Shown here: one piece after another, positions 16,179 through 61,671 of the stretch
Position numbering within the stretch: the first letter of the stretch is position 1
How the letters are laid out: each line of letters begins with the position of its first letter
DNA from: Candidatus Nomurabacteria bacterium
GTDB lineage: Bacteria; Patescibacteriota; Minisyncoccia; Phycocordibacterales; UBA918
Assembly (NCBI GenBank): GCA_020632095.1
Contig: JACKGF010000001.1
Span: 802,141 to 866,140 of the forward strand
Reading direction: 5' to 3'
DNA length: 64,000 nucleotides
The notes under the pieces: generated by a model
The model's database searches: none
What the model was told of the DNA's origin: nothing
What the model saw: the letters and a program-made list of their open reading frames with translations, nothing else
Made by a program: the position numbers and the translations under genes

Positions 16179-16422
16179 ATTTTTACCAAAAAAATTTTGA
16201 GTTTAATTTTTTATTATTCAACAAACGCTAAGACAGCTTAGCTTAAAAGTGCTAGCTTCATTATTAAGTAGTGAAATAGGGCTGTAAATAAGATTAAACT
16301 GAAGTTCAGAGTAATCAAAAACTAACATAACTTACAAAAAATTAATTAGTAAAAAAATAAATTTTAGCTTTTTTATAAAAACACGAAACACAATTTAGTC
16401 AAATGAAATTGTAAAGGACAAG

Positions 16423-16441
16423 TTATCCACAGTTATACACA
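16423..16441 (+). promoter_or_regulatory. tandem DnaA-box-like motifs (TTATCCACA, TTATACACA) at the edge of a very AT-rich stretch
   Basis: A perfect DnaA-box consensus and a one-mismatch box lie adjacent to each other. An AT-rich tract of about 250 bp precedes them (16180-16420). Confidence 0.25.
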
Positions 16442-16845
16442 CCCCTGTCCTTTACACTGTCCTTTAGGATTAGTATATTAATGGTAGGCCCAGAAAGGGC
16501 GAGCAAGCTCTCCCAGAGAACTAACCAGAATCAATTTCCGATTAGTTCCCTGGAAGAGCTCCTTATAGAGTTCTTCCAAAATCCACAAATGAGTTACCTC
16601 CAAAATGATAGCAATATCATTAAACTCAAAACGTTCATAAAACATCCCACCCCCTTAGAAATCAGATCAAGCTCACATCCACAAGAGCGAGATCACAAAA
16701 TGATTTCTACAACAACGTAGAGCTCGGACACGGTTAGCTTCATCAGTAAGCGCCACCCATGACTATTTAGTCACTATAGCTCGCCAAAGGCCCGGAAAGT
16801 CGGCTGACAAGTATCACACTTGCCCATCGACTCCCCGGGCCTTTT

Positions 16846-16933
16846 TTTTGCATGAACAAAGGCCTGAAAGGCCTATTGTGAATGTATGTTGCTAGAAAAT
16901 AATGACTGAAAGGAGTATATTTTATGTATGCTG
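16846..16933 (+). repeat. direct repeat copy 1 (about 88 bp) with a 5' hairpin and an embedded SD-ATG
   Basis: tgaacaaaggcctgaaaggcctattgtgaatgtatgttgctagaaaataatgactgaaaggagtatattttatgtatgctgtgcacaag. Confidence 0.7.
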
Positions 16934-16966
16934 TGCACAAGATTTGTTTTGCCTTGAGCAAATTCT

Positions 16967-17055
16967 GACTCAAGGAACAAATGTCCGAAGGGCATATTGT
17001 GAAAATATGTTGCTAGAAAATAATGACTGAAAGGAGTATATTTTATGTATGCTTG
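16967..17055 (+). repeat. direct repeat copy 2 (121-bp period)
   Basis: It is identical over about 60 nt. Its hairpin has a different sequence (atgtcc-gaa-gggcat, against aggcct-gaa-aggcct in copy 1) but keeps the base-pairing. A 1-nt indel follows the ATG. Confidence 0.7.
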
Positions 17056-17306
17056 TGCACAAGGATCCGCCTCTTTCCTAGGGCGGATTCCTGGACGTGG
17101 AACAATGCTCCGCAAACTCTCTTCCTGGTAGGAAATAACCAAGTAAAATGTTTATATACACCTACCCCCCTAAACCGACCCTAATACAGTTTAGCCTTAC
17201 CAAGGAAGAGTCTAGGTAAAAACTACTTGGTCACCTGAATTGTCCAACCAAGGAAAGGTCTAGGCGAAATTACTAGTCGATTCAATCTCACTTTGTCACC
17301 CCCCAT

Positions 17307-17336
17307 AAGAAAACGGCTCAACTGAGCCGTTTTCTT
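17307..17336. terminator. bidirectional intrinsic terminator
   Basis: aagaaaacggctca-act-gagccgttttctt. Confidence 0.65.
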
Positions 17337-17346
17337 AACCTGTCCT

Positions 17347-18819
17347 TTATAATACCTTATGCTCTCTCGCGATGTCCTTTAGGGCTTCAGCTTCTTCTTC
17401 CGCTTGGCGACGTTTACCTGCCTCCGCCATTGTTTCTAGCTCTACTTCGGGCAATTTAAGTAATTCCAACGCCCTTTGCTCCATATACTCCTCAGTATTC
17501 TTGCTGGCATCATCCAAAGCTTCTTCCAACAGTGCGTGCAGTAGATATCCCAGCTTTTTACCAGGCTTTTCCCCAGAGATTTCCATAATTTTATCCCCAG
17601 AGATTTTAAGCATCTTAACTGAGATTGGGTCGCGTAAAGCTTCGTCCACCATCGCTTTGTATTTACGGAAGCGAAAAGGCTGTTCTTTTGGTCGACCGGT
17701 ACCGATACGGTCACAAACTCTCAGGTTTAATAAATTTTCTATCTGGTCCTCCCCTATTCTGGTAATGGTTCTCCGTACCGCTGAAAGTGTAATTTCGTCT
17801 GGGTCTGAGAAAAACATGTGCCATCGCACTAGGTTCACCACTTCTTCAATCATTTCGCGTGGCAGCTTCAGTCTCTCTAGAATAGATTTAGTCATCCGCG
17901 CGCCCACTACTTCATGACCAAAGAATGTGTACTTCTTATTCTTTCCACCAACTCTTCTGGTGGCTGGCTTTGCGATATCGTGAAATAAGGCGGCCAAACG
18001 TAGATTGAGAGAAAATTCTTTGTCGGCGGCTGCCTGCATGGTGCGTAGTAGGTGTTCATAGACATCAAATGCGTGGATTCCACCTTGTTCGCAACCAATT
18101 GAATCAGCAAATTCAGGGATAAATTGCTTCAGTAGACCTAACTTTTCTAGGAAGATAACCCCTTGCATTGGGGTAGAAGAATTAACGATCCTCAAAAACT
18201 CGGCCGCAATACGTTCAATAGAAATACGGCTCAATTGTTCACTGTTCTTTAAGATAGCAGCCATGGTCTTCCCTTCGATCATAAAGTCCAGTTCAGCCGC
18301 CAAGCGAACGGCCCGCATCATGCGTAAGGCATCTTCCGCAAAACGTTCGTCCGAGTCACCGACTGTTTGTAGTCGTTTTGCTCTGAGGTCGCTAATTCCC
18401 TCAAACAAATCAATTAATTCCGCTGTCGAGATACGATAGGCTAAGGCGTTGATGGTAAAATCACGACGCTTCAGGTCTTCTTCCAGTGAAACACCGAAAG
18501 TAACGTTGTCTGGGCGGCGAGCATCGCTGTATCCACTTTCGGAACGATAAGGAGTGACCTCAATTATCTTTAGTCGTTCATCTTCTGACTCAGTCTTGAT
18601 ACCAATAGTGCCAAAGTCATTGTTCGCATAATGCTCAGGAAAAAGCGCTTGAATATCACTCGGGTGTGCATTGGTGGTAATATCCCAATCCTTCGGAGTC
18701 TTACCTAAAATTAAGTCACGAGTACAACCGCCCACCAAATAGGCTTCAAAACCCTTACTTTCAAGCATATTTGCAACATGAAACACTTCGTCCGGAATAT
18801 CGGTAGTTTTGATAGACAT
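17347..18819 (-). CDS. cca: CCA-adding tRNA nucleotidyltransferase with an HD domain
   Basis: GGCTRDLILGKTPKDWDITT is the PolyA_pol head. It also has the HD motif (HDIAK) and a C-terminal extension. Confidence 0.85.
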   Translation of the reverse strand: MSIKTTDIPDEVFHVANMLESKGFEAYLVGGCTRDLILGKTPKDWDITTNAHPSDIQALFPEHYANNDFGTIGIKTESEDERLKIIEVTPYRSESGYSDARRPDNVTFGVSLEEDLKRRDFTINALAYRISTAELIDLFEGISDLRAKRLQTVGDSDERFAEDALRMMRAVRLAAELDFMIEGKTMAAILKNSEQLSRISIERIAAEFLRIVNSSTPMQGVIFLEKLGLLKQFIPEFADSIGCEQGGIHAFDVYEHLLRTMQAAADKEFSLNLRLAALFHDIAKPATRRVGGKNKKYTFFGHEVVGARMTKSILERLKLPREMIEEVVNLVRWHMFFSDPDEITLSAVRRTITRIGEDQIENLLNLRVCDRIGTGRPKEQPFRFRKYKAMVDEALRDPISVKMLKISGDKIMEISGEKPGKKLGYLLHALLEEALDDASKNTEEYMEQRALELLKLPEVELETMAEAGKRRQAEEEAEALKDIAREHKVL

Positions 18820-18915
18820 GACATTATTCTAGCAGAAATTACTGTTTGGGGTATGTTTATCTATAATTAGCGGTTGAATATTACCGAAAACAATAGTACA
18901 CTGCGACATACTAAT

Positions 18916-19473: not shown

Positions 19474-20886
19474 ATGGGAAGCATTAGATTCATAATCGAC
19501 GGTAGTAAACTCGAGGCGGACTCCGTCTATGGGTATCCGTATAGCCTGAGTATGATCCAAAGGGGTGTCGATTCTCACGATCAGGAGCTCGGTGTCATCG
19601 AGGAGAAACAGGTCCCGGACTACCTAATAAGTGTCTTCCGAGCCATGCAGGTCGCGATCCCGCCGGAGAACATATATACCGGCGCAATCAGCAATCAAGC
19701 TCCAAGCGCGATGGTCGATACTATGTTCGGTGTCGGACGTCGTAGCTCCGCGACCTTCACTTTCCTCCCGACCGAGCTCACGGCTCATGGTCACCGCGCT
19801 TGGGTCAAGCATAAGTACTGGACGGAAGGTGGGGGCGAGTGTTGGATTGGCTCCCTGATAGAGCACAATGCCTACGTCGCCGGTTTCTGGCTCGACGAGC
19901 GGGCCGCCCAGCAGTGGGTGGAGGACCTTACCAAGCACCCGCTCGGTGAGGTCCTGCTCAAGAGCACAACACCCTACGCCGTTGTGTTCCAGGATCACGT
20001 CAATCCGGCCGAGTGGAAAGGTGTGAGGATCAATTATTTCTCGTACTGCCTGCTTTCTGAGGATGACAACTACCTCCTGAACACGATCGGTGGAGGATGT
20101 CCAAAGGGCGTTTACCGTTCATTCGATGTTTCCTTCGAGCAGTGGAACGGAACGGTCTACGTTCACGCGCCCGAGCTCTGGCAGTTGGAGCGAGACAACA
20201 AACGCGACGTCTTCCCACTTAGCCCGTCCTACCTCATTCTTCGTGCCCGCAACGGTGCCCAGGAAGTGCTTCTCACAGGTACCGACCAAGACAAGAACGG
20301 CTGGACGAAATACGTCTATGAGCTTCCTAGGCGTAAGTCCTACAACCCTCTCGACGCCTCGGGCAATTGGGCCACCTTCTGGCCCAGTTACAATGCTTGG
20401 GAGGAATTCGCCTTCGCACAACACATCAAGGCGCGTCAGGTGAGTACCCTCCACAGCGACGACTGGGGCGACGAGGATGACCCCTTCTTCATTCCACTCA
20501 CACAAGAGTACGCGAAGAAGGCCTGGGCCGCGGGCGCTACGAAGCTCCCGGCCGAGAGCATCAAGCTCAAGGTCAGCCAGTTCAAGGCGGGATACGGAGA
20601 GGGAGATCGATTAATCAACGATGAGCAAAACCCTCTGAATGGTGCCGTTATCTACGACGGATTCGACTTTGTCTCGGGTTTAGTGGGCCGGATCGTGGAT
20701 TGGATCTGGCTCAAGAAGGAATCGGCCTGCGTGTTTCTGCCTATGGGTTTCGTAGGCTGGATTCAGTGTCAGAAGGGGCTGGCAATCTCCCATGCCACGG
20801 TGGTTCGTAAGCTCGGCGACAAGTCGCGCGATCCGACTGAAATAACAGTATTTTCGGATGGTAGTTGCATCTACCCCACCACCTAG
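19474..20886 (+). CDS. hypothetical protein (470 aa), compositionally foreign (about 58-60% GC)
   Basis: Long ORF with GC3-rich codons. I recognise no motif. Confidence 0.55.
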   Translation: MGSIRFIIDGSKLEADSVYGYPYSLSMIQRGVDSHDQELGVIEEKQVPDYLISVFRAMQVAIPPENIYTGAISNQAPSAMVDTMFGVGRRSSATFTFLPTELTAHGHRAWVKHKYWTEGGGECWIGSLIEHNAYVAGFWLDERAAQQWVEDLTKHPLGEVLLKSTTPYAVVFQDHVNPAEWKGVRINYFSYCLLSEDDNYLLNTIGGGCPKGVYRSFDVSFEQWNGTVYVHAPELWQLERDNKRDVFPLSPSYLILRARNGAQEVLLTGTDQDKNGWTKYVYELPRRKSYNPLDASGNWATFWPSYNAWEEFAFAQHIKARQVSTLHSDDWGDEDDPFFIPLTQEYAKKAWAAGATKLPAESIKLKVSQFKAGYGEGDRLINDEQNPLNGAVIYDGFDFVSGLVGRIVDWIWLKKESACVFLPMGFVGWIQCQKGLAISHATVVRKLGDKSRDPTEITVFSDGSCIYPTT

Positions 20887-39551: not shown

Positions 39552-40523
39552 CTATTCTGTTTGTGTGATAAGTGTTCGCAATCTTGCGTTTACATCAAAC
39601 TTCTTTGAATTGTCTTGGATGAACTTGAACATAGACAGAATGAGTTTTTGCATTTCGGAGTTACGGATTTCAATTACGATTTCCTCGTTCACAGCTATCA
39701 GATATAAGGAGCTTTTAAAAATAAATATTTGACCGCCATGCTTGAAATAATCCTCATGGATTTCGTTTGATATGGCCATGCGTCCTTCGAAGTTTTTAGC
39801 CCATTCCGCGCCGTGTGATGGGTACATCCTTTCGAAAAGACCGACTGGAAATATCATTTCAGTAATTATCTTGTTGTCTTTGATTGAGAGATTCCATCGA
39901 TCAAAACTTTCGTTATCAAACATGTTTCTCCAGCCCTCCGCCGCACTGTCTCCTTGAAGTGCAAAAAGGCGTTCTTGCTTGTGCTCTTTGGTGAGGTTGC
40001 CTAAGAGCGTTTTAACAGCAATGTTGCCGCGATGAACAAGTACGGTCGAGTCTGATACGCCTTTAATTTCTTCAGTACCCTCTGGTATAGCTAAGAGCTC
40101 TGTCTTGGTTAAGTACAACTCCTGCTCAATATTTCTATCAGTGGTTTGTGTCCAATATTTTTTACCGCTTCGAATATAAGTGTTGATTAAGCCTCGTTTG
40201 TGTAATCTTTGTAGTGTTTCGTAGACTGTGGTGCGGGAAATCTTTGTGTGTCTGGTGATTAATAGGGGAGTATTGTATTTGTTGCGTAAGGAATCAAGCA
40301 CTTTGATTTCTGAACGCGATAAACCAAGTAGTTTGATATTAGTTTTGGACAGCTTCATCAGTGAATGGTAGCAATTGTAGTCAGTTCTGTCCAGAAAATC
40401 CGACATAATTAGTATCAATATAACCTTTAATAATATGTCCAGAAATGAGATAAGTAAATATAATGCAATAAATTTATACTTTAGTTCATATAGGAATAAG
40501 CTGTATACGGGTAAGTTAACCAA
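39552..40523 (-). CDS. TrmB-family transcriptional regulator (paralog 2)
   Basis: Its HTH is ITRHTKISRTTVYETLQRLHKRGLI. Its C-terminal domain is about 60% identical to 49303..50121. The N-terminal extension in the listed ORF may not be translated. Confidence 0.55.
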   Translation of the reverse strand: MVNLPVYSLFLYELKYKFIALYLLISFLDILLKVILILIMSDFLDRTDYNCYHSLMKLSKTNIKLLGLSRSEIKVLDSLRNKYNTPLLITRHTKISRTTVYETLQRLHKRGLINTYIRSGKKYWTQTTDRNIEQELYLTKTELLAIPEGTEEIKGVSDSTVLVHRGNIAVKTLLGNLTKEHKQERLFALQGDSAAEGWRNMFDNESFDRWNLSIKDNKIITEMIFPVGLFERMYPSHGAEWAKNFEGRMAISNEIHEDYFKHGGQIFIFKSSLYLIAVNEEIVIEIRNSEMQKLILSMFKFIQDNSKKFDVNARLRTLITQTE

Positions 40524-43291: not shown

Positions 43292-43364
43292 AGTTATAGG
43301 ATGGTAACTACTTCAGTCAATCTGCCAACAATAAAACCCCCTAAATAGTGGTTCATTGTATCTG

Positions 43365-43435
43365 TGCGGGTGAGAGGAATCGAACCCCCGACTACTGCTT
43401 GGAAGGCAGTCGTTTTACCACTAAACTACACCCGC
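43365..43435 (-). tRNA. tRNA-Gly (anticodon TCC)
   Basis: Reverse-complement acceptor stem GCGGGTG/CACCCGC. The anticodon stem is ACTGC/GCAGT with loop CTTCCAA. The T-loop is TTCGATT. Confidence 0.8.
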
Positions 43436-46585: not shown

Positions 46586-47137
46586 TTACTGCAAGCCGAG
46601 AAAGGCTTTTATCATTTCTTTTGTGATCTTACCCTTGCTTTTTCTTATGAGAACAATCAGTTCGGCCAGATTGTCTGTCGGTAGCGGGTTTCTGCTTGTT
46701 TGGTAACATTCGGCAATTACCTCGACCAAAGGAAGAAAAGCTAGAGAAACCAATTCTTTACACGTGACACCAGGCTCGTCGGTTATGGAGTCCACAAAGA
46801 AATAGTTCTTAAGATTTATCACGTTACCCTTCGTTGGTAGCGTGTAGGCTCCTAGCCACCGGTCAATTGTCGCGATTGAAATTGACGTTTGGTGAGCAAA
46901 ATCCTGCTTGTTGCCGAAGGTTGCAAAGAGGTTCGATAAGGCTGTGGCAACAGGTTTGTTATTTGTGAGACCAGCTCTAGCTTCTGTAACCGCATGTTCG
47001 AACACTCCCCAAAGTTCTGAGACCGATTGAGTATTTGTCATTGTTTCACTCCTGTTTGTTGAATGCGGATTGATTGAAGAACTCCCAGATACACTGAGTA
47101 TGTTTAATAATATGTAGCAAATGGATGGAAATGGCAA
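46586..47137 (-). CDS. hypothetical protein
   Basis: ORF. The likely start is MTNTQSVSELW at about 47042. Confidence 0.4.
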   Translation of the reverse strand: MPFPSICYILLNILSVSGSSSINPHSTNRSETMTNTQSVSELWGVFEHAVTEARAGLTNNKPVATALSNLFATFGNKQDFAHQTSISIATIDRWLGAYTLPTKGNVINLKNYFFVDSITDEPGVTCKELVSLAFLPLVEVIAECYQTSRNPLPTDNLAELIVLIRKSKGKITKEMIKAFLGLQ

Positions 47138-47356
47138 GTGATATGAAAACCAAGTAGAAAAAATTGTGAGGGGACTGAAAGACTATATAAAAGCCCTAGC
47201 TGCCGAAATTGGCTACTTAGGACTTATCGTAGCAAATTAAATTGCTATCTTATTATTCTGTTTTTTGTGATACTTTTTCTATTTCTTACAAGTTTTTGAT
47301 ATAAAACATTTATAACATTACTTCAGAAACAAACTCTGACACTCACTTGCTAGACG

Positions 47357-47722
47357 TTAGCAATCAAAAATAAGTGTCATCACTTCTTCACGGTTGGTAG
47401 CTGTAAATTTATTACCAGGCCAAGAATGAATGCTTTTGCGTTCGAAAACAACATTGGTCGGCTCAACTACTCGTTCGAAGTTGTCAAATTTTAATTCAGG
47501 GTACCACTCCTCCTCATCATATTCACGTTGTACGTATGATAGGAGTTGAGTGAATCTCCACCAAACACCGAGGACACAAATAAACCAAGTTTCTTGTTCC
47601 TCAAAAGAATAGGATAACTCACTACCTCTTTCCGTGTAGAAAAGTACATCGATGTCAATCTCTTCTCCAAGTATTGCTTGTGAATCAACAACATGAATGT
47701 CTATTTCGGTAACATGAGACAT
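47357..47722 (-). CDS. hypothetical protein
   Basis: 121-aa ORF followed by a terminator at about 47829-47875. Confidence 0.4.
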   Translation of the reverse strand: MSHVTEIDIHVVDSQAILGEEIDIDVLFYTERGSELSYSFEEQETWFICVLGVWWRFTQLLSYVQREYDEEEWYPELKFDNFERVVEPTNVVFERKSIHSWPGNKFTATNREEVMTLIFDC

Positions 47723-47893
47723 GAAGAACTCCTTTTCGGTTTTGAGCCCGAGAATTCGGAACTCGTCTTCAATAATAGCATGAAATCATGAAAAGTCAAG
47801 CGTGGAGCGTGGATTTTGGGGTGAGTTTAGTAAAACAGGGTGGGATTTTCTTAAGAAAATCCCACCCTGTTTTTGATCTCGGTTGCTTCGATT

Positions 47894-48502
47894 CTATTTA
47901 TAAATCGCGTCAACAATTCCGTAGGCTTTAGCTTCATCGGCATCCATGAAGAGGTCGCGGTCGACATCTTGCTCAACTTTGGCTAGCTTTTGCCCAGTAG
48001 CCTTGGCGAGCATTTTGTTGAGTCGTTCTCGGGTCTTTATGATGTGCTTAGCGGTGATATCAATATCAGAAGCTTGGCCGTAGGCGCCACCACTGGGTTG
48101 GTGAATCATTACCTCGGCGTTGGGTAGAATAAAACGCTTACCTTTCTCTCCTTGCGATAGAATCAAAGAACCCATTGAAGCAGCCATCCCAACACACACC
48201 GTCGCCACGTGAGGCTTGATGTGGTGCATGGTGTCAATAATCGACAAGCCAGCGGTCACACTACCGCCCGGTGAATTAATGTATAAGAAAATATCCTTCT
48301 TGGGATCGTCAGATTCTAGGAAGAGTAATTGCGCCACAATCAGGTTGGACATATGGTCTTCAATCTGTCCAGTAATAAAAATTATCCGTTCTTTTAACAG
48401 GCGGGAAAAGATATCGAAAGCGCGTTCGCCACCCGCGGTTTTTTCAATCACCATTGGGACTAGGTTAGCACTTGGTAGTTCTGTTTGTTTTTCAGTTTGC
48501 AT
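47894..48502 (-). CDS. clpP: ATP-dependent Clp protease proteolytic subunit
   Basis: [11 protein letters not shown] and MIHQPSGG give the catalytic Ser and His. Confidence 0.9.
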
Positions 48503-48670
48503 AAGTTTTCAAAATTAATGATTCTGCGACAATAAGCTCGGTGCAGACTCTAATCGTACTCAATTATCTCTATAAAAGCAAAATATATAATTCGAGGTAT
48601 TAGAGATTATGTTTTTTTGTCAGGATAAACAAAGTCATCCAACAAGGTCGAATGACTTTGTTGGATGGGG

Positions 48671-49084
48671 CTAAATCTTTAGGTGCATTTTTACCTCTTG
48701 TAGTGCAAGCCGATGAAATCCAAGCTGGATTTGATTCAGCGCATCTTCAATACTATGGAGTTCTACAAAAGGGTGTAGTTTTTTGTCGTCATCAAACATG
48801 CTGAAATTATTGACAAGCCAAATGGTGTACACATCGACAGCTTTCCTCGATGAATAGAGAATGCGGTCTTCGATGAGGAGAAAGCGATAAAGCTTTAATG
48901 TCTGGCCAGTTTCTTTATGCATCATGCGTCGTACAGCTCTCCTTCGGGTTTCTCCAAAACGACATGAGCAGATAGGAAGTCCAAGAAGTACCCTTTTGAG
49001 AGCCTTACCTTCATATCGCCTCAGAGTAACAACTTGATTGTCTGGTGTAAGGGCAACGACAATATTGAAATATCTGCTGGTCAC
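48671..49084 (-). CDS. hypothetical protein (possible degenerate NUDIX fold)
   Basis: GLPICSCRFGETRRRAVRRMMHKETG weakly resembles a NUDIX box. Confidence 0.3.
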   Translation of the reverse strand: MTSRYFNIVVALTPDNQVVTLRRYEGKALKRVLLGLPICSCRFGETRRRAVRRMMHKETGQTLKLYRFLLIEDRILYSSRKAVDVYTIWLVNNFSMFDDDKKLHPFVELHSIEDALNQIQLGFHRLALQEVKMHLKI

Positions 49085-49149
49085 GTGCTTCTCCTCGTTG
49101 ATTGAACTGGTGATAATGTACTTTGGTAGGGGATATTAGTCAAATATTT

Positions 49150-49301
49150 AAAACCGGTGCGAGACATTGTCTCGTACCGGTTTAACAATTCACTCTTTAG
49201 TTTACTTCTACTTCGATTCCAGCATCTTCAGCACTTCTTCATTCAGTAAGACTGATGCGACATACAGGCGGACGCGGTGTTCGTCGGCGTCTTTGAGGTG
49301 T
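49150..49301 (-). pseudogene. diverged duplicate of the tig 3' end plus its terminator (matches 53276..53437 at about 90%)
   Basis: aaaaccggtgcgagacattgtctcgtaccggtttaacaattcactctttagtttacttctacttcg... aligns with the region around the tig stop codon. Confidence 0.6.
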
Positions 49302-49302
49302 G

Positions 49303-50121
49303 TTAGGAGTTATACGTTTTAGCTAGTAGTTCTCGCAATCTAGCGTTCACGTCAAATTTTCTTGAGTTGTCTTTGATGAATTCAAACATCGATTTTATCA
49401 ATTTCTGGATTTCTGAATGGCGGATTTCAATAATGATTTCCTCGTTCATCGCGATTAAATAAACTGAGTTCTTAAACATCCAAATCTGCCCAGCGTGTTG
49501 AAAGTAGTCACCTGCAATTTCATGCGAAATAGCCGACCGACCTTCAAATTCTTCCGCCCACTTTTTACCCAGCAATTCAGTCTGCCTCTCAAACCAGCCA
49601 AAGGGCATAATGGTCTCCACAATAATCGCGTTCTTTTTGATGAATCTATTAATTTCATTCGTTTGCTCGGTACCAAAAACTTTTTCCCAACCAATCACGA
49701 CCACGTCTCCCTGAATCGCCAGTAACCGTTGTTCCTTATGGTCTTTGATGATTCCGTAAAGAAGCTGGCGGATGGCCTCACCACCGCGGTGAATCATAAC
49801 GGTTGAATCAGATAGTCCGTGCACCTCCTCAACTCTTTCATCTATATTGAATAGTTGTTTCTTCGTATTGTATAGATTTTGTTCAATATCTTTTTCCTTA
49901 GCCTGCGACCAATATTTTTTACCATTAACAATATTGGTTTTTACCAACCCTCTTTTGTGCAGCTTAACCAGAATCTCATAAATAGCGGGGCGGGATACTT
50001 TAATAGCCTTGTTAATCAACAGTGGGGTATTGTTTCCAGCCCGCAAAGCATCCAACACCTTAATCTCTTTGGTGGATAATCCCAGTAATTTTATCTGTTC
50101 AGCGTCTAATTTCATACCCAC
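49303..50121 (-). CDS. TrmB-family transcriptional regulator (paralog 3)
   Basis: Its HTH is INKAIKVSRPAIYEILVKLHKRGLV. Its C-terminal domain is closely similar to 39552..40523. Confidence 0.55.
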   Translation of the reverse strand: MGMKLDAEQIKLLGLSTKEIKVLDALRAGNNTPLLINKAIKVSRPAIYEILVKLHKRGLVKTNIVNGKKYWSQAKEKDIEQNLYNTKKQLFNIDERVEEVHGLSDSTVMIHRGGEAIRQLLYGIIKDHKEQRLLAIQGDVVVIGWEKVFGTEQTNEINRFIKKNAIIVETIMPFGWFERQTELLGKKWAEEFEGRSAISHEIAGDYFQHAGQIWMFKNSVYLIAMNEEIIIEIRHSEIQKLIKSMFEFIKDNSRKFDVNARLRELLAKTYNS

Positions 50122-50196
50122 ATAGTACCAATATTTGCATTATTGTAAAGTTTTACCTACATAGTTACAGATAAATCCACGGCTTAAAACATATTT

Positions 50197-51204
50197 TTCC
50201 CCCAGACACCTTTGAAGTAGGACAGCTATAAAGTAAATTAGCTGTCTATGAAAACATACAGACACATACAATTTGAGGAGCGTTTCGTAATTGAAAAGTT
50301 ATTGAACGCAGGGAGTTTGATCAGAGAAATAGCCATCTTCCTCAAACGTAGTCCCAACACCATCAGTCAGGAACTAAAGAAGAATAGGGTTAATGGAGTC
50401 TATGACGCCAAGCAAGCCCAACTAAAAGTGAACCAGCGTCGTTGGCGCGCTAAACGTCAGTGTCTCAAGGTGGCAATGGATAGTTTCCTAGTAAGCTTCG
50501 TAGAAGACAAACTAGAGCAGAAGTGGACCCCTAAACAAATCAGTGGACATCTCAAACGAGAGCTCGGTGTTACCTGTTCCGCCAAAGCTATATACAAGTT
50601 CATAGAAAGTCGTGGTCTGGAATATCGACTATTCTGGCGTTGGAACAAAAAGAAAAGTGGTCCGAAACGGACCACACATAAACCAGCTGATGATGGCCGT
50701 AAATATATAGATATTCGTCCTCTTGGTAGCCATGAGCTAGGTCACTATGAACTAGACTTCATTGTCTCTAAGTACAGTCCATACGTACTTCTAGTGGCTA
50801 CTGACCGTTTAACTAAATACAGCTTGGTACGTCAGTTACCCAATAGAAAACGCCACACAATCAGTGCAGCGTTCTCTAAAATGTTTAGCAATATTATAGT
50901 CAAGAGTATCACCACCGACAACGACATTGCATTCCGTCACTGGACGGAACTAGAACAAATCATACAGGCTCCAATCTATTTCTGCCACCCTTATCATTCT
51001 TGGGAGAAGGGACTGGTAGAGAATACTAATCGTTGGATTAGATGCTTTGTTCCAAAGCGGAGAGACATTGCGTCTGTTACTCAAGAAGAATTGAATGAGA
51101 TTCATACCTTCTTGAATGACCGACCGAAAGAGTGTATTGATTTTAGGATTTCGAGTGAGTATTATTATGAGCAATCTGTCCTACTTGAGGGGTAGCTGGA
51201 GGTT
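50197..51204 (+). mobile_element. IS30-family insertion sequence, copy 1 (about 1.0 kb)
   Basis: It is identical to 60664..61671 apart from 2-3 substitutions. It has imperfect terminal inverted repeats (..aagtaggacag..) and encodes a DDE transposase. Confidence 0.8.
50248..51195 (+). CDS. IS30-family DDE transposase
   Basis: 315 aa with an N-terminal HTH and a C-terminal integrase-core region (HPYHSWEKGLVEN). Confidence 0.85.
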   Translation: MKTYRHIQFEERFVIEKLLNAGSLIREIAIFLKRSPNTISQELKKNRVNGVYDAKQAQLKVNQRRWRAKRQCLKVAMDSFLVSFVEDKLEQKWTPKQISGHLKRELGVTCSAKAIYKFIESRGLEYRLFWRWNKKKSGPKRTTHKPADDGRKYIDIRPLGSHELGHYELDFIVSKYSPYVLLVATDRLTKYSLVRQLPNRKRHTISAAFSKMFSNIIVKSITTDNDIAFRHWTELEQIIQAPIYFCHPYHSWEKGLVENTNRWIRCFVPKRRDIASVTQEELNEIHTFLNDRPKECIDFRISSEYYYEQSVLLEG

Positions 51205-51282
51205 TTTCACACACTGAGCCTAAAACCACAGATAAATTGTACTGTCAACTAATTTTACCCTATACTATTCGCAGTTAGTTCT

Positions 51283-51720
51283 TTGACACGCGGAATAATT
51301 CCGCACCCGCGCCTCGGGGTACTGGGGTTGGAGACAAGCATGAGCAAGTACGAAAATGTCGAAAGCTTCAGCATTGAGGTTGATGGATTTGCGGGAGAGG
51401 TCAAAATGACCTATGTCCCAAACAGAATCGACTCCGACGGCTCCGCCTTCGGGCGCCACCTGAAGAGCTGTGAGGTCAGTCTCACCGACCCGAGCGGTCA
51501 GGTGTGGTGCGCGGAGTTGGGAGCGTCCGGAGGTGGCGGCGGATCCTGGAGCGCGGCGTCAACCGAATTCTTCTGGAAGACGGTTGAGCGAGTTGGTGGC
51601 ACCCTGGTACTGGGCGGAGATGAAGTGACCATCTTCGAGACATATAACGCTCGAAATGCGTTTTCTGGTGGGTGGTCAACCTCCCGCCGTGTAAAACACA
51701 TCGAGGTCGTTTTGGAGTAG
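51283..51720 (+). CDS. hypothetical protein in very high-GC DNA (about 65-70% GC); likely start at about 51340
   Basis: ORF with GC-rich codons and a Gly run (GASGGGGGSW). Confidence 0.3.
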   Translation: MTRGIIPHPRLGVLGLETSMSKYENVESFSIEVDGFAGEVKMTYVPNRIDSDGSAFGRHLKSCEVSLTDPSGQVWCAELGASGGGGGSWSAASTEFFWKTVERVGGTLVLGGDEVTIFETYNARNAFSGGWSTSRRVKHIEVVLE

Positions 51721-51895
51721 TCGGTCGCCGCGCTGAGCCCAGTCTGACAGCGCGCTAAAAATAAATGGGTGCTCGAGAGCGGGCAGATGGAGGGATAACA
51801 GACTAAATCCCCATCAAGAGCTTCTGGTAGATTAGCTTAGACTACCCGTTTGACCTTACGTGAAAGTGTCTTGGCGAGTTGAATGTTCACACCTC

Positions 51896-51944
51896 CTCGC
51901 CATCTTTATCAAGTTCATCAGTTAATGGTGAATTTGTAGAGATG
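51896..51944 (+). repeat. 49-bp direct repeat copy 1
   Basis: ctcgccatctttatcaagttcatcagttaatggtgaatttgtagagatg. It is repeated exactly at 52674..52722. Confidence 0.7.
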
Positions 51945-52472
51945 TTCTTTAAAAAATGACCGTAAGAGCCCAATTCTCAGGATATCTGAGAACCTACATG
52001 ACAGGTCAGGCAAATGTCATAAGGGTCGCAAACGCGATAGGGTCTAACAAGATTGTGTGGGTCTGTCCAAGACCATTACATGCGTAAGGCGCATGTATAT
52101 CTGACAAACCTCAGATTTTTTGAGGCAACAGATGATCTTGAAGGAGCCCCCTTCAGGATGCGTGTCCTGCTAGCGGACACAGGGACTATCGGTGCTTGAA
52201 CAAAACGCCGAGAAGGACACAGAAAAGGAAAGCATATTGTGTCCATGCATAATGGCGAGCAACACACCGCTCGCCATTTTCACCAAGTCCACAACCTATT
52301 TGCAGGTACGGCCGAGCTGAGGATCTCGAAAAACTCCTTGCTGTTCACGAGTGTGTACTCGTGCTGATGAGCTCAAAAGAGCGAAACAGAAAAGTTCTTT
52401 ACAACACCTTGGTGTGTGAAATCTGCCAGTTTACTAAATTGTTGGTAGATTCCACATACCAAGGAGAAACAA

Positions 52473-52646
52473 ATGGAAAAGATGCACATTGAAGTAGCTG
52501 GGGGCACGGTCATTCATTTGCCAGTTGCCGAGCTTCCTGCCGGAGCTCCTAGCGAGGAGTATCTCGCGCGACGGAAAGCAGCCGGGGCTAAGCTCCCGAT
52601 TCTTAATGTTCCATTACCAATTGAGGAGGGTCATGAGGATACATGA
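52473..52646 (+). CDS. small ORF (57 aa) with a strong RBS
   Basis: aaggagaaacaaATG gives MEKMHIEVAGGTVIHLPVAELPAGAPSEEYLARRKAAGAKLPILNVPLPIEEGHEDT. Confidence 0.3.
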   Translation: MEKMHIEVAGGTVIHLPVAELPAGAPSEEYLARRKAAGAKLPILNVPLPIEEGHEDT

Positions 52647-52673
52647 TAAGCAGTTCTGGCGAGCAACACACCG

Positions 52674-52722
52674 CTCGCCATCTTTATCAAGTTCATCAGT
52701 TAATGGTGAATTTGTAGAGATG
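52674..52722 (+). repeat. 49-bp direct repeat copy 2
   Basis: It is preceded by ggcgagcaacacaccgctcgccat. That 24-mer is also present at 52254..52277. Confidence 0.7.
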
Positions 52723-52741
52723 AATCTAAATGAAAGCTATT

Positions 52742-52782
52742 AAAAAACTGGTGTGATTCCGTAGGAATCACACCAGTTTTTT
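52742..52782. terminator. bidirectional terminator
   Basis: aaaaaactggtgtgattccgtaggaatcacaccagtttttt. It is near-identical in design to 56487..56528. Confidence 0.65.
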
Positions 52783-52876
52783 AACGTAATTCTAATGATA
52801 GGGTTTAGTATTAATTGTGCATAATAATGTCAGTGGCAGAGAGGATTTCTATATGATACATTGACGATGGAACGCT

Positions 52877-53257
52877 GTGTTCAGTGATACATCTTACACA
52901 AGACAAGGGGTGAATATGATGAGTAAAAAATTCGAGATCTTTCCGGATGGAACTACACCTACATCTACGATGGGTCCAGAAGAAACACGACGCTTTCTTG
53001 ACAGCTTTGCTGCAGATATGGATGCAGAAAAAGAACGAAAAGAGAGGCTTCGAAGGCCGTTCAAGATTGAAGTAGGTAAGTGCTTGTGTGGGGACCGCAT
53101 CATGTACTCGCGAAGTTTTAAGTGCACTGAAAGATTGTGCATTGGTGGTCCATCTGAGGAAGTTTGGGAATGCTACTGTGTGCATTGTGGACTGAGATAT
53201 CATAGAGACGCCAAGTTGATTGCACCTGTTATCCGGAGTTACTTAGACAGTTTGTGA
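52877..53257 (+). CDS. small Cys-rich protein (zinc-ribbon-like)
   Basis: GKCLCGDRIMYSRSFKCTERLCIGGPSEEVWECYCVHCG. The start is probably at about 52913. Confidence 0.4.
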   Translation: MFSDTSYTRQGVNMMSKKFEIFPDGTTPTSTMGPEETRRFLDSFAADMDAEKERKERLRRPFKIEVGKCLCGDRIMYSRSFKCTERLCIGGPSEEVWECYCVHCGLRYHRDAKLIAPVIRSYLDSL

Positions 53258-53333
53258 CAACGGGAGCAGACATCGAAAACCGGTGCGAGACAATGTCTCG
53301 CACCGGTTTAACAATTCACTCTTTAGTTTACTT

Positions 53334-54467
53334 CTACTTCGCTTCCAACATCTTCAGTACTTCTTCATTTAGTAGGACAGATGCTACATACAGGCGGACG
53401 CGGTGTTCGTCGGCGTCTTTGAAGCGGGTTAGGAGTTCCTTGGTTTGGGCGTCTAGTTGTTCTTTGTTTGGGATCACTTCTTCCTTCTTAGCGATTTCGT
53501 TGAGGATTAGTTGGAGTTTGGCGCGCATTTCGGCGGCTGGCTTCCATTCAGCCGCTAGGTCATCTTTAGTTTTCTTAATGTGGGTCAAATAGTCTTCCAT
53601 CTTCAACTCTGACCGATTGAGGTCTTCTTGCATTTGAGCGAACATTTGGTTGATTTCAGATTCAACTAAAATCTTTGGAAGTTTGATTTCGGTTTTGGCG
53701 ATGATGCCGTCGGTGATGTCAGCTCGATGCTTAGCGGCGTTAGTTTGTTTCTTTTCAATTTCGACGTGTTCTCGAAGTTTAGCTTTGAAATCAGCAACGG
53801 TTTCAAATTGTCCAGGTTGACCAAGCGTCTTCACGTACTCGTCAGTTAGTTCTGGTAGGGGAGCGTCTTTGTCGTCTTCTGCTTTAGCGGCTTCTGATTC
53901 GGGAGTTGGGAGGTCGGTGGCTCCGTCAGCCTCTGGAGCTTTTTGGTTGGCCAGATTTTGCATTCGCTCGTAGGCACGCTTTTGGGTCTGAATCTCCTTT
54001 ATTTTTTCATCCAGTTCAGCCTCGGTTACTTCATCACTTGGACGCTTTTTGTTTACCTCTTTTGCAATCGCTTCGTAGTCGGGCAAAGTAAATTTGGGAA
54101 TGATAGCCACGGTCGCGGTAAAGCCCAGGGGATTTTCGGGAGCAATTTTGGTAACTTCGATTTGGGGTTGTCCGATGGCTTCGATTTTGTGTTCTTCGAT
54201 AATGTGTGGGTAGGCGTGAGCGATAGCTCGTTCAGCCATTTCGGTCATGATAGCCATTTCTCCAATGTGCTTTTCTAACACAGGAGTAGGGATGTGACCT
54301 TTACGAAAACCATCCAAGGTAACGTTTTTGCCTAGAGCTACTACAGCTGCTGTGCGCTCACTTTGTAACTCAGCGTAAGGAAGTTCACCAGAAATCTTAA
54401 CTTGTGAATCTGGTAGTTCCTCAACGGTAAAAGCGGTTTTGTAATCTAAAGAATGTGAATGTGACAT
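53334..54467 (-). CDS. tig: trigger factor (short form without an obvious PPIase domain)
   Basis: It has the ribosome-binding motif LDGFRKGHIPTPVLEKHIG and the N-terminal and C-terminal chaperone arms. It is 377 aa. Confidence 0.75.
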   Translation of the reverse strand: MSHSHSLDYKTAFTVEELPDSQVKISGELPYAELQSERTAAVVALGKNVTLDGFRKGHIPTPVLEKHIGEMAIMTEMAERAIAHAYPHIIEEHKIEAIGQPQIEVTKIAPENPLGFTATVAIIPKFTLPDYEAIAKEVNKKRPSDEVTEAELDEKIKEIQTQKRAYERMQNLANQKAPEADGATDLPTPESEAAKAEDDKDAPLPELTDEYVKTLGQPGQFETVADFKAKLREHVEIEKKQTNAAKHRADITDGIIAKTEIKLPKILVESEINQMFAQMQEDLNRSELKMEDYLTHIKKTKDDLAAEWKPAAEMRAKLQLILNEIAKKEEVIPNKEQLDAQTKELLTRFKDADEHRVRLYVASVLLNEEVLKMLEAK

Positions 54468-54556
54468 AATGCTGGCCAGTGTACGAAACTGAGCGAAAAT
54501 TGCAACTTCGTTGAGTAAATATGTTATAAAAAGTCATTAATTACTAAGTTTGCATT

Positions 54557-55402
54557 ATGTTGGCAGTAAAAAATATTTTGACTGGAGAAGTGGGTGAGAT
54601 TGAGTCGGCCTATGTTGTAGTTGAGAGGAATTTGCCTTTGGTGATTTCTACTCCTCATAGTGGTAGGTGCGTTCTCGAAAAATATGCCGATCACTTTACC
54701 TTTGGAGATGGTTTTAGAGTCGATAATGATATGTATACTGGCGAGCTTTACCCTTTGGAACTTGGTAGTTCAATCTCTGGAAATCTTAGTCAACACCAAG
54801 TTAACATGAATCGTTCTTGGGAGTTGATTGAAGGGCGCGACCCTCTAATGACAATCTCTTTTTTATCTGAAGACGATATTTATACCAAACCATGGAGTGA
54901 TGTTGAGCGGGAGGAGTTGCGTCTGATGCACAAGGCTTACCATAGTGATTTGGCCCGCTTGATGAAACAGATGAAAGAAACATACGGATATGCATTATTG
55001 ATTGATTGTCACTCACTTAATTCCCGAGCGCTTAGTAATACACCAGACGCTGGTAGTATTGATAGAGCCGATTTCGTGATCGGTTCGTTGGATGGAGCTT
55101 CAGCTGATAGTCGGGTGGTAGATGTTTTTCATGAAGCGTTGGAGAAACAGGCGACTCCTCGGGGGCTAAAAGTAGTCAGAAATAATCCATATAAAGGTGG
55201 ATGGATAACAAAAACTTGGGCCCGTCCAGAAGAAGGATTCCATGTTTTGCAATTAGAAATCAAAAAGAAGATGTATATGTATGAGGGGATTGATGATGAT
55301 GGCGAGAAAGCTTTTCAAAAACGTGATAGTTTTGCCGATATACAAAAAGTCCTAGAAAAAGCTTTTAGAGAAACCCGTGATTTTGCGAGTACGATTTTGT
55401 AG
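54557..55402 (+). CDS. N-formylglutamate amidohydrolase-family protein
   Basis: ISTPHSGRCV and the overall size resemble FGase (PF05013). Moderate confidence. Confidence 0.5.
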   Translation: MLAVKNILTGEVGEIESAYVVVERNLPLVISTPHSGRCVLEKYADHFTFGDGFRVDNDMYTGELYPLELGSSISGNLSQHQVNMNRSWELIEGRDPLMTISFLSEDDIYTKPWSDVEREELRLMHKAYHSDLARLMKQMKETYGYALLIDCHSLNSRALSNTPDAGSIDRADFVIGSLDGASADSRVVDVFHEALEKQATPRGLKVVRNNPYKGGWITKTWARPEEGFHVLQLEIKKKMYMYEGIDDDGEKAFQKRDSFADIQKVLEKAFRETRDFASTIL

Positions 55403-55546
55403 GGAAGGATGACAAATGTTTAAATAGGCAACTAAGTGTTGCGAAGGGCATTAAAACATCACCATGAGCAATTGACAATGTCTGTTTCTTATGATATCAT
55501 CTAAAATGAGCTGTACTTCGTAACATAAACATTTGAAGGAGCTATC

Positions 55547-56407
55547 ATGACTCTTACTGAACTGCTGCGAATCGGCGACAAAGTCGTTTTCAAGGTTAGT
55601 CCCGACAATCGTCAGTGGGCTGATACCTACAGTAACGTACCTGATGGTACGGTGGGTGTAGTCTGCGGGTTTTACGACGCTGTGATGTACGAAAGCCGGG
55701 TGCAAGTCTTGGCGAATGAGCCTGGTGTTTATCACCGTAAGGGTGCGGTGTCGGTCTGGTTGGCAGATGGACGCATTGTTCCCGGTGGCTACAGTGTTGA
55801 AATGGTAGATAAGGAGGAAGAAAAACGCCGCGATGCACTTTATCGTGATGAGCGCGGCATCTTCTGTAGAAATAAGGACCAGGTTCGTCTCGGCGACTTG
55901 CCCCCTACAACTTTTTGGGAGGGAGACAAGGTTCGTGTTCGCTTTCCTAGCGAGGCTGAAGTACAAGAGATGACGATTCAGGGTATTGACTATCATCAAA
56001 TGCACGAAAAGCGTTGTGATGGTTCGCCTTACCCTTTCTACAGAGTCGGTTTCCAAGACGGACGTTCGATCGCCGCTGAGGAATCTTGGATTGAGCTCAT
56101 CGAAAGAGGTAATGTTTGGAAGTACTACCACCAAGAACCTCTCGCATTCGATAGCCTCAAAGACGAATCTGTCTTTTTCACGATGATTGGTCGCACGGAG
56201 GAAGTGCGTAATCCCGAAACTGACAATTATCGTTGGACCTTGGACCAGGCGCTTAAAGCCATCAAGGAAGGCCTCGGCCACGGTTTCACCAATTGGATGA
56301 TTCCGTTTTCTAACAATCAAAGAATTTCAGTAATCAAATTTCTCGATGAAGACCTCGGAAGTCGCGTGGCTGCCGAAACCCTCAAAGGGTTTGAAGTCAC
56401 CGCTTGA
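55547..56407 (+). CDS. hypothetical protein (about 48% GC)
   Basis: 286-aa ORF. No family recognised. Confidence 0.45.
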   Translation: MTLTELLRIGDKVVFKVSPDNRQWADTYSNVPDGTVGVVCGFYDAVMYESRVQVLANEPGVYHRKGAVSVWLADGRIVPGGYSVEMVDKEEEKRRDALYRDERGIFCRNKDQVRLGDLPPTTFWEGDKVRVRFPSEAEVQEMTIQGIDYHQMHEKRCDGSPYPFYRVGFQDGRSIAAEESWIELIERGNVWKYYHQEPLAFDSLKDESVFFTMIGRTEEVRNPETDNYRWTLDQALKAIKEGLGHGFTNWMIPFSNNQRISVIKFLDEDLGSRVAAETLKGFEVTA

Positions 56408-56486: not shown

Positions 56487-56528
56487 TAAAACTGGTGGGA
56501 TTCACGGAGTGAATCCCACCAGTTTTTT
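56487..56528. terminator. bidirectional terminator
   Basis: aaaactggtgggattcacggagtgaatcccaccagtttttt. Confidence 0.65.
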
Positions 56529-60663: not shown

Positions 60664-61671
60664 TCCCCCCAGACACCTTTGAAGTAGGACAGCTATAAAG
60701 TAAATTAGCTGTCTATGAAAACATACAGACACATACAATTTGAGGAGCGTTTCGTAATTGAAAAGTTATTGAACGCAGGGAGTTTGATCAGAGAAATAGC
60801 CATCTTCCTCAAACGTAGTCCCAACACCATCAGTCAGGAACTAAAGAAGAATAGGGTTAATGGAGTCTATGACGCCAAGCAAGCCCAACTAAAAGTAAGT
60901 CAACGTCGTTGGCGGGCTAAACGTCAGTGTCTCAAGGTGGCAATGGATAGTTTCCTAGTGAGCTTCGTAGAAGACAAACTAGAGCAGAAGTGGACCCCTA
61001 AACAAATCAGTGGACATCTCAAACGAGAGCTCGGTGTTACCTGTTCCGCCAAAGCTATATACAAGTTCATAGAAAGTCGTGGTCTGGAATATCGACTATT
61101 CTGGCGTTGGAACAAAAAGAAAAGTGGTCCGAAACGGACCACACATAAACCAGCTGATGATGGCCGTAAATATATAGATATTCGTCCTCTTGGTAGCCAT
61201 GAGCTAGGTCACTATGAACTAGACTTCATTGTCTCTAAGTACAGTCCATACGTACTTCTAGTGGCTACTGACCGTTTAACTAAATACAGCTTGGTACGTC
61301 AGTTACCCAATAGAAAACGCCACACAATCAGTGCAGCGTTCTCTAAAATGTTTAGCAATATTATAGTCAAGAGTATCACCACCGACAACGACATTGCATT
61401 CCGTCACTGGACGGAACTAGAACAAATCATACAGGCTCCAATCTATTTCTGCCACCCTTATCATTCTTGGGAGAAGGGACTGGTAGAGAATACTAATCGT
61501 TGGATTAGATGCTTTGTTCCAAAGCGGAGAGACATTGCGTCTGTTACTCAAGAAGAATTGAATGAGATTCATGCCTTCTTGAATGACCGACCGAAAGAGT
61601 GTATTGATTTTAGGATTTCGAGTGAGTATTATTATGAGCAATCTGTCCTACTTGAGGGGTAGCTGGAGGTT
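60664..61671 (+). mobile_element. IS30-family insertion sequence, copy 2
   Basis: It is identical to copy 1 except for a few substitutions. Confidence 0.8.
60715..61662 (+). CDS. IS30-family DDE transposase (copy 2)
   Basis: It differs from the copy-1 protein at 2 residues (N/S and T/A). Confidence 0.85.
   Translation: MKTYRHIQFEERFVIEKLLNAGSLIREIAIFLKRSPNTISQELKKNRVNGVYDAKQAQLKVSQRRWRAKRQCLKVAMDSFLVSFVEDKLEQKWTPKQISGHLKRELGVTCSAKAIYKFIESRGLEYRLFWRWNKKKSGPKRTTHKPADDGRKYIDIRPLGSHELGHYELDFIVSKYSPYVLLVATDRLTKYSLVRQLPNRKRHTISAAFSKMFSNIIVKSITTDNDIAFRHWTELEQIIQAPIYFCHPYHSWEKGLVENTNRWIRCFVPKRRDIASVTQEELNEIHAFLNDRPKECIDFRISSEYYYEQSVLLEG

Follow-up and report, generated by a model that had tools for sequence, protein, structure and literature searches.

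The trigger factor gene tig and its downstream neighbor clpP, both on the minus strand of a 64-kb window from a Candidatus Nomurabacteria genome (64,000 nucleotides of contig JACKGF010000001.1, the whole stretch of DNA analyzed here, whose numbering is used throughout), are separated by a 4126-bp insert bounded by two diverged copies of the tig 3' end. The reading we favor, with roughly even confidence, is that this region may be the recombinant joint of two related tig-clpP haplotypes, one bearing and one lacking the block of genes between the repeats. The anatomy of the region, its joint, the absence of the block from relatives, its independence from the insertion sequence (IS) that it carries, and the reproducibility of the structure are established. 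Proteins of the window correspond to NCBI entries H6784_04165 (TrmB-family, exact match), H6784_04175, and H6784_04185 (tig, identical). The features that delimit the structure are the following.

53334-54467, minus strand: tig, trigger factor of 377 aa, with PF05697 (Trigger_N) and PF05698 (Trigger_C) only
53267-53437, minus strand: copy B, the functional tig 3' end (last 33 codons at 53334-53435; hairpin at 53277-53309)
49303-50115, minus strand: TrmB-family winged-helix regulator (270 aa, ATG at 50115; PF01978 at residues 13-70, 33.1 bits against a cut-off of 25.6)
49141-49311, minus strand: copy A, a promoterless relic of the tig 3' end (codons -33 to stop at 49208-49309; hairpin at 49151-49183)
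47894-48502, minus strand: clpP, the downstream backbone gene (PF00574, 272 bits)
Flank following the terminator of copy A: AAATATTTGACTAATATCC
Flank following the terminator of copy B: CGATGTCTGCTCCCGTTG

The two copies form a direct repeat of 171 nt that is 91% identical without gaps and comprises the last 33 codons of tig with its stop, 27 nt of 3' untranslated region (3'UTR), and a terminator hairpin. A first-pass annotation of this DNA had proposed such a diverged duplicate, which exists as described except in its extent: the terminator is included as claimed, and the coding part amounts to 33 codons plus the stop, not to about 55. A chance origin of this repeat is impossible, and only four repeat families of at least 40 nt occur within the window. 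The copies share perfect tracts of 37 and 40 nt, with patchy differences elsewhere, and both hairpins are predicted to be stable (-20.7 kcal/mol, z=-4.1 for copy A; -30.7 kcal/mol, z=-6.2 for copy B). Homology starts at AACTCCTAAC and ends past the U-tract of the terminator, where copy B runs into a 113-aa Cys-rich ORF (Cys113) and copy A into the spacer before a 137-aa ORF (o137). The insert holds 3955 bp of unique sequence, with the TrmB-family regulator, an IS30 element, and four small plus-strand ORFs. Read along the minus strand from tig, the order is terminator, Cys113, a hairpin, a 778-bp unit, a 126-aa GC-rich ORF (GC126), IS30, the TrmB-family gene, copy A, o137, and clpP.

Both junctions were recovered in short-read metagenome assemblies from four samples; samples containing this species are those behind ERZ27248697, ERZ27309364, and ERZ28655857, together with SRR8206192. 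Among the metagenome contigs and related loci that we compared with the window (labeled L001-L041), independent MEGAHIT/Logan contigs L001, L002, and L041 span the passage from tig through copy B into Cys113, and independent contigs L003/L005, L004, and L007 span that from the TrmB-family gene through copy A and o137 into clpP, in each case at 99.8-100% identity. With both junctions reproduced in four samples, the duplication is a real structure.

Copy A appears to have been put to use at the joint. As predicted from sequence, it gives the TrmB-family gene its last two codons, its stop (49303-49305), its 3'UTR, and its terminator. The stretch AACTCCTAA at the joint, ...ACG TAT|AAC TCC TAA, corresponds to (G)AA CTC CTA A of tig; the same bases read (G)AA CTC CTA AC, or E L L T, in the tig frame and AAC TCC TAA, or N S stop, in the TrmB frame. 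Homologs of the regulator end seven residues past a shared ARLR motif, as in a paralog elsewhere in the window (TLITQTE*) and in the homolog of L038 (SLIEKED*), whereas the protein of the block ends nine residues past it, in ELLAKTY followed by the two tig-derived codons NS*. Because the homologs stop seven residues after ARLR and the block gene two codons later, the joint lies at the native TrmB stop codon. Microhomology where this stop meets tig codon -33 is 1-2 nt at most. The C-terminal 200 residues of the regulator have no Pfam match. Its closest homolog, that of L038 (73% identical), carries no relic and does not lie near tig. The paralog within the window (39552-40361) is 57% identical to the block protein, retains the native C-terminus ...ARLRTLITQTE*, and adjoins a radical-SAM gene.

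That the DNA between the repeats is an insertion is indicated by its absence in relatives that keep the surrounding gene order. A scan taking one genome per species yielded 26 Patescibacteria loci with tig products 34-84% identical in amino acid sequence, among which NusA-PPase-o261-o140-tig-clpP-RNase Y is the conserved backbone order. Tig and clpP are adjacent on the same strand in 24 of the 26 loci, in keeping with the gene order initially recognized for this pair; the clpP products of these 24 relatives are 80-90% identical to that of the window, and the block is missing from all 24 (tig identity 34-84%). Gene content matching the block in relatives without the duplication, which would have spoken against an insertion, was thus sought and found in 0 of 24. 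The first-pass estimate of about 4.8 kb for this insertion has to be reduced to 4126 bp, and its description as a disruption of the pair holds less well, since the tig-clpP spacer of relatives ranges from 101 to 3921 nt (median 877). That spacer contains a remote TrmB-like gene (31-33% identity) in two of these loci, L012 and L014. Neighboring spacers of the window also contain lineage-specific genes that are absent from relatives, namely an FGase gene and a 286-aa ORF between o140 and tig (54557-56407) and ORFs of 121 and 183 aa between clpP and the RNase Y gene rny (46586-47722). Judged from these comparisons, every spacer around tig and clpP on this backbone is variable in the lineage, and tig and clpP are not a tight pair uniquely disrupted by the insertion, given that both spacer lengths and neighboring spacers vary. 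No FKBP-type PPIase domain was detected by Pfam in the 377-aa trigger factor, and the trigger factors of relatives are similar in length.

The ORF beside clpP had been counted among the inserted genes as NUDIX-like, an assignment that its position contradicts.

48671-49084, minus strand: o137, a degenerate NUDIX-like ORF of 137 aa, outside the insert

NUDIX genes occur between tig and clpP, on the tig strand, in L018, L029, and L020, and because they share its position and strand, o137 probably dates back to the ancestral tig-clpP spacer. Its resemblance to the family is faint: the Pfam NUDIX match has E=0.18 and 12.3 bits, below the cut-off of 21.1, and its NUDIX-box motif GETRRRAVRRMMHKETG departs from GX5EX7REUXEEXGU in having RE replaced by RR, EE by KE, and the catalytic Glu exchanged. 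It does match the same-position NUDIX ORF of L018 (BLASTP E=0.002), and gene callers differ on whether to call it. Copy A, its terminator, o137, and clpP run on without interruption in what seems to be the older order.

Differences between the copies bear on when they were brought together. Across the 33 codons there are 10 differences, seven synonymous and three nonsynonymous (pS 0.28 vs pN 0.04, Fisher p=0.002), and the 58 noncoding nt differ at two positions, so that divergence is higher at synonymous sites (p=0.003). Two of the nonsynonymous changes, R to H and F to L, lie in the relic at sites invariant in relatives. The third, A/S (LEAK vs LESK), is a natural polymorphism, the functional tig of strain L040 (SRR19984972) having the A-type LESK. 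This strain carries the tig-Cys113 side of the block at 92.7% identity and was the only one close enough to polarize the differences; relatives at 66-84% tig identity failed to do so, their synonymous sites being saturated. Over the 140 nt common to L040 and the two copies, private changes number four in copy A, five in copy B, and five in L040, a three-way star-like pattern in which the relic branch is not elongated relative to functional tig ends. The event had been called old at first annotation; its age is uncertain, given a relic branch no longer than those of functional tig ends, and the pattern fits two already diverged functional alleles that may have been juxtaposed rather recently, with little decay since.

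The mobile element within the block accounts for none of this. Its identification as IS30, like that of the TrmB-family regulator and the Cys-rich ORF, was borne out.

50199-51202, plus strand: IS30-family element of 1004 bp (transposase at 50248-51195; NCBIfam NF033563, 199.7 bits against a cut-off of 80)
50199-50225 and 51176-51202: terminal inverted repeats of 27 nt, 78% complementary
50196-50198 and 51203-51205: 3-bp target duplication, TTT

Target duplications of the IS30 family are usually 2-3 bp long. The element sits in the divergent intergenic region between the TrmB-family gene and GC126, with 888 nt and 2065 nt separating its ends from the repeat copies, and its intact 3-bp target duplication indicates arrival by simple transposition. 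A second copy lies 10.5 kb away at 60666-61669, with seven mismatches in about 1 kb (about 99% identity) and a target duplication of TTC. We also considered the 171-nt repeat as an IS target duplication and rejected this, as the annotation had, since the repeats do not abut the IS ends and the element has its own TTT, 0.9 kb from the nearest repeat copy. From its placement, IS30 is a later, secondary insertion, a passenger in the block that did not cause the 171-nt duplication.

These observations could be accommodated by two haplotypes and two joints. In one haplotype, a module consisting of Cys113, small-ORF cassettes, GC126, and the divergent TrmB-family regulator would have lain directly downstream of tig; the other would have read tig, terminator, NUDIX-like ORF, and clpP. 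A homologous exchange within tig, together with a single illegitimate joint fusing the TrmB stop codon to tig codon -33 of the other haplotype, would have left an intact tig (copy B), the 4.1-kb block, and the 171-nt promoterless relic (copy A) acting as stop, 3'UTR, and terminator of the TrmB-family gene. One illegitimate joint suffices for the whole structure because homology on the terminator side just stops where the haplotypes differ. IS30 would have transposed later into the TrmB/GC126 intergenic region, and the 778-bp unit may have been gained or lost via recombination between the 49-nt repeats that bound it. That each copy stems from a different allele is inferred, as is the way in which the DNA entered. 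Entry could have been by transformation with a linear fragment, followed by homology-facilitated illegitimate recombination (HFIR), or by a single crossover after a fragment had circularized, with either haplotype as the recipient. HFIR joins one homologous and one illegitimate end, and single crossover of recircularized DNA produces 109-950-bp duplications of the homologous segment (PMC3240628); Patescibacteria have been reported to carry genes for competence and homologous recombination (PMC12455944). Repeats of a homologous segment, one illegitimate joint, the lack of a recombinase in the block, and near-native composition are what such an event would be expected to leave. Among the block ORFs, scans with Pfam, NCBIfam, PHROGs, and PADLOC found no recombinase, the IS30 DDE transposase being the only recombination-type enzyme. 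The near-native composition of the block also fits a donor within the same lineage.

Two other loci resemble this architecture. In L039 (positions 1-1021, a JGI metagenome contig), a TrmB1-type gene with 63% identity runs on in frame into the final 12 tig codons (...ARLKKLLNEEVMKSLEAK*) and is followed by a different terminator and then by the end of an IS30-like element at 899. On sequence grounds, this fusion may have arisen independently, or it may derive by deletion from an arrangement like that of the window. In the related Nomurabacteria genome L012, a cassette resembling a diversity-generating retroelement lies between clpP and RNase Y (15478-18873), with a reverse transcriptase (YADD motif), a 276-aa target ORF, and two repeats (17229-17347 and 17688-17806; 119 nt, 85%) resembling a template and its variable counterpart. 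A 157-nt clpP 3'-end relic, 82% identical, bounds the cassette, which gives it the same architecture as the tig relic.

Several points weigh against a joint of two haplotypes. The block-less allele was not found for this species, either by searching for exact matches to the tig, clpP, and TrmB proteins and to variants of tig or in the four samples, all of which are filled; nor was a circular form or a donor genome observed. L039 belongs to a much more distant lineage, and its 63% identical TrmB is nevertheless fused to a tig fragment, so the joint could be ancient and the relic gene-converted. The synonymous bias rests on small numbers, and an in-situ model in which one copy is constrained and the other neutral gives at least 7 of 10 synonymous differences with P=0.054. 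The noncoding part may have been conserved through use of both terminators.

The main rival is an old duplicate made in place, which we regard as possible, though clearly the less probable account. In this account, a TrmB module would have entered tig at codon -33 long before the lineages of the window, L040, and perhaps L039 diverged, and occasional gene conversion between repeats 4 kb apart would since have kept the copies at about 91% identity. Consistent with this, the L039 fusion would follow from the window arrangement if about 90 nt separating the "ELL" and "VLL" codons were lost, the relic of each lineage resembles its own tig type, the differences between copies are patchy around the perfect tracts of 37 and 40 nt, and the tig-proximal part of the block is common to L040. 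However, the A-B distance equals both A-L040 and B-L040, which implies no conversion since the strains split; the relic branch, moreover, is no longer than the others and shows no nonsynonymous excess over the 140 nt compared, and L038, whose TrmB is the nearest homolog (73%), lacks a relic and does not have this gene beside tig. A site-specific integrative island would make the 171-nt repeats its attL and attR, supply a replacement tig 3' end, and have lost its integrase. The succession of intact gene, island, and displaced fragment matches islands known at gene 3' ends, and the clpP relic likewise bounds the retroelement cassette of L012. We nevertheless consider such an island unlikely: neither the block nor the L012 insert contains a tyrosine or serine recombinase, the joint cuts the TrmB stop codon and so is not a defined element end, the joint of L039 is different, and nothing similar was found in phage or plasmid collections. 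As putative att sites the repeats give a mixed picture: tig is intact and the tracts of 37 and 40 nt are perfect, but the repeats are long and imperfect throughout, and one end lies in the stop codon of a cargo gene.

A rearrangement made by IS30 itself, through composite transposition or IS-mediated recombination, is far less plausible again. One IS30 does lie inside the block, a second 10.5 kb away, and an IS30-like end near the TrmB-tig fusion of L039, but the intact 3-bp target duplication denotes simple transposition, the ends are 0.9 and 2.1 kb from the repeat copies, and the duplication measures 171 bp against the 3 bp observed for the element. Misjoining at repeats does happen in assemblies of metagenome-assembled genomes (MAGs), yet an artefact of this kind in the source genome is refuted by the independent contigs from four samples over both sides at 99.8-100% identity, leaving it a negligible chance.

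The cargo between the repeats consists, beyond IS30 and the TrmB-family gene, of small plus-strand ORFs interspersed with hairpins.

51340-51720, plus strand: GC126, a GC-rich ORF of 126 aa (GC 0.564, GC3 0.661, z=3.4), the sole compositional outlier of the block
51735-51914, plus strand: S1, a conserved noncoding 3' element ending in the hairpin GGCGAG-N17-CTCGCC (51873-51901)
51945-52722, plus strand: 778-bp unit with small ORFs at 52053-52199 and 52473-52646 and hairpins at 52254-52275 and 52658-52679
52740-52784, no strand assigned: bidirectional terminator-like hairpin with a perfect 21-bp stem, from an inverted-repeat search
52916-53257, plus strand: Cys113, convergent with tig, with a single homolog (P0124)
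L040:336-526, L036:519-745 (also L037), L014:11232-11478, L038:2441-2644, L035:2812-3009: S1 copies of about 180-240 nt

Homologs of GC126 form just two other clusters among 5.8 billion proteins; the contigs that encode them have a GC content of about 50%, and one belongs to a Patescibacteria MAG. Its AlphaFold2 (AF2) model is all-beta (pLDDT 83) and has no PDB fold match with TM>0.4. S1 recurs after unrelated ORFs in seven other loci (nhmmer E=1e-44 to 1e-54), with compensatory changes at some base pairs, and has no Rfam family; a scan of 47500-55000 at E<=1 returned chance matches only. The ORFs preceding it are mutually unrelated (GC126 here, 95 aa in L040, 220 aa in L014, 111 aa in L038), and between the window and L040 the ORF has been exchanged (126 aa vs an unrelated 95 aa) with both the 5' leader and S1 kept. 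Direct repeats inside the block, which the earlier annotation had reported, are indeed present: perfect 49-nt copies at 51896-51944 and 52674-52722, which include a terminator-like hairpin, bound the 778-bp unit, and each of its small ORFs is followed by a GGCGAG...CTCGCC hairpin. This unit is present in the window and in L002 and precisely absent from L001 and L040, and is therefore a natural presence/absence polymorphism among strains. Taken together, the sequence of the small-ORF region suggests a cassette-like variable locus. An integron cassette array was considered and rejected: there is no integrase in the block and no recognizable attC, and the 778-bp unit is bounded by plain repeats.

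Cys113 had no family match in Pfam, NCBIfam, PHROGs, or PADLOC scans, and its AF2 model is poor (pLDDT 52). Its only homolog, P0124, is 91% identical and adjoins a tig 3' end in L040. Public gene calls for this ORF (L001:8265-8759 and L002:1608-2102) read 164 aa through TGA codons and appear to have used a nonstandard code; translation table 11 gives 113 aa. The hairpin at 52740-52784 has a related copy at 56488-56528 (AAAAAACTGGTG.GATTC...GAATC.CACCAGTTTTTT) with compensatory stem changes. PADLOC and PHROGs scans of the cargo ORFs returned nothing beyond the TrmB helix-turn-helix (HTH), and a distant blastn comparison of the block with collections of phages and plasmids gave no match.

The composition of the block is mostly native. 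The 1.6 kb that had been described as 65-70% GC against a background of 40% averages 48%, from IS30 to the hairpin at 52740-52784, against 42% for the window. Only about 0.5 kb is GC-rich (56-58%), with a single 100-nt segment as high as 69%, and the same GC is reached at two other places in the 64 kb. The suspicion of foreign composition, checked by GC and codon usage, survives only for the 381-nt GC126 ORF (GC3 z=3.4), the remainder of the block being native in GC and GC3. A distant high-GC donor for the whole block was rejected because only this one ORF is an outlier and its homologs lie in contigs of about 50% GC. The strongest compositional outlier of the window, above GC126, is a 470-aa ORF at 19474-20886 (GC3 0.69).

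Taken alone, this locus shows an unremarkable recombination scar of a familiar type, in a spacer that is variable anyway, and its cargo genes can be assigned no function. Its value lies in being a clean, well-bounded case of accessory gene gain in a genome streamlined to about 1 Mb and poor in mobile-element genes: one homologous exchange and one illegitimate joint would be enough, and the scar appears to be reused as a stop codon and terminator. The two similar loci in other Patescibacteria hint at a common route of gene gain in a phylum reported to be naturally competent. A broader proposition, which we think rather doubtful, is that Patescibacteria may gain and exchange modules without integrases, through RecA-type recombination anchored in housekeeping 3' ends that leaves relics of about 160-170 nt, with small ORFs swapped in front of the apparently structured S1 element. 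Three cases fit such integrase-free exchange, namely the tig relic, the TrmB-tig fusion of L039, and the 157-nt clpP relic of L012; if the proposition is true, flanking repeats would let modules pop out and re-enter related genomes.

Two further observations concern sites away from tig and clpP. In L005, which is of the same species, a 5.3-kb insert (L005:6975-12275) that is absent from the window lies at the tRNA-Gly tcc gene (window 43363-43435); with genes for a serine recombinase and for Rep-like, HTH, and GIY-YIG proteins, it is probably a small integrative element. A 79-nt direct repeat of the window (16854-16932 and 16975-17053; 91% identical, spaced 121 nt) has the look of small-gene starts that were duplicated; it carries an ATG, a Shine-Dalgarno-like motif, and a hairpin.

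The block shares traits with several known systems. Like islands and prophages at the 3' ends of tRNA, tmRNA, and protein-coding genes, it leaves the target gene intact and a displaced 3' fragment at the far edge; unlike them, it has no integrase, its edge lies inside a cargo stop codon, and its repeats are long and imperfect without a short identical core. The element at 50199-51202 shares the transposase, terminal inverted repeats, and 3-bp target duplication of the IS30 family and differs in being a passenger, not the cause of a duplication. As in integron-like and polymorphic small-ORF cassette loci, unrelated small ORFs precede a conserved 3' element and a repeat-bounded unit varies among strains, whereas no integron integrase or attC was found in the block and each locus has roughly one 3' element, some 180 nt long; the exchange of small ORFs can be explained by ordinary homologous recombination in conserved flanks. 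Finally, the single-crossover (Campbell-type) and HFIR events described in E. coli, S. pneumoniae, A. baylyi, and P. stutzeri (PMC3240628) differ from the block in that it is a natural event read from the sequence of an uncultivated Patescibacterium, its copies are 9% different, and its homologous segment is the 3' end of a housekeeping gene with its terminator. With these events the block shares one homologous anchor, one illegitimate joint that shows minimal microhomology or none, and the lack of a dedicated recombinase, and its 171-bp duplication compares with the 109-950-bp direct duplications of single-crossover products (PMC3240628).

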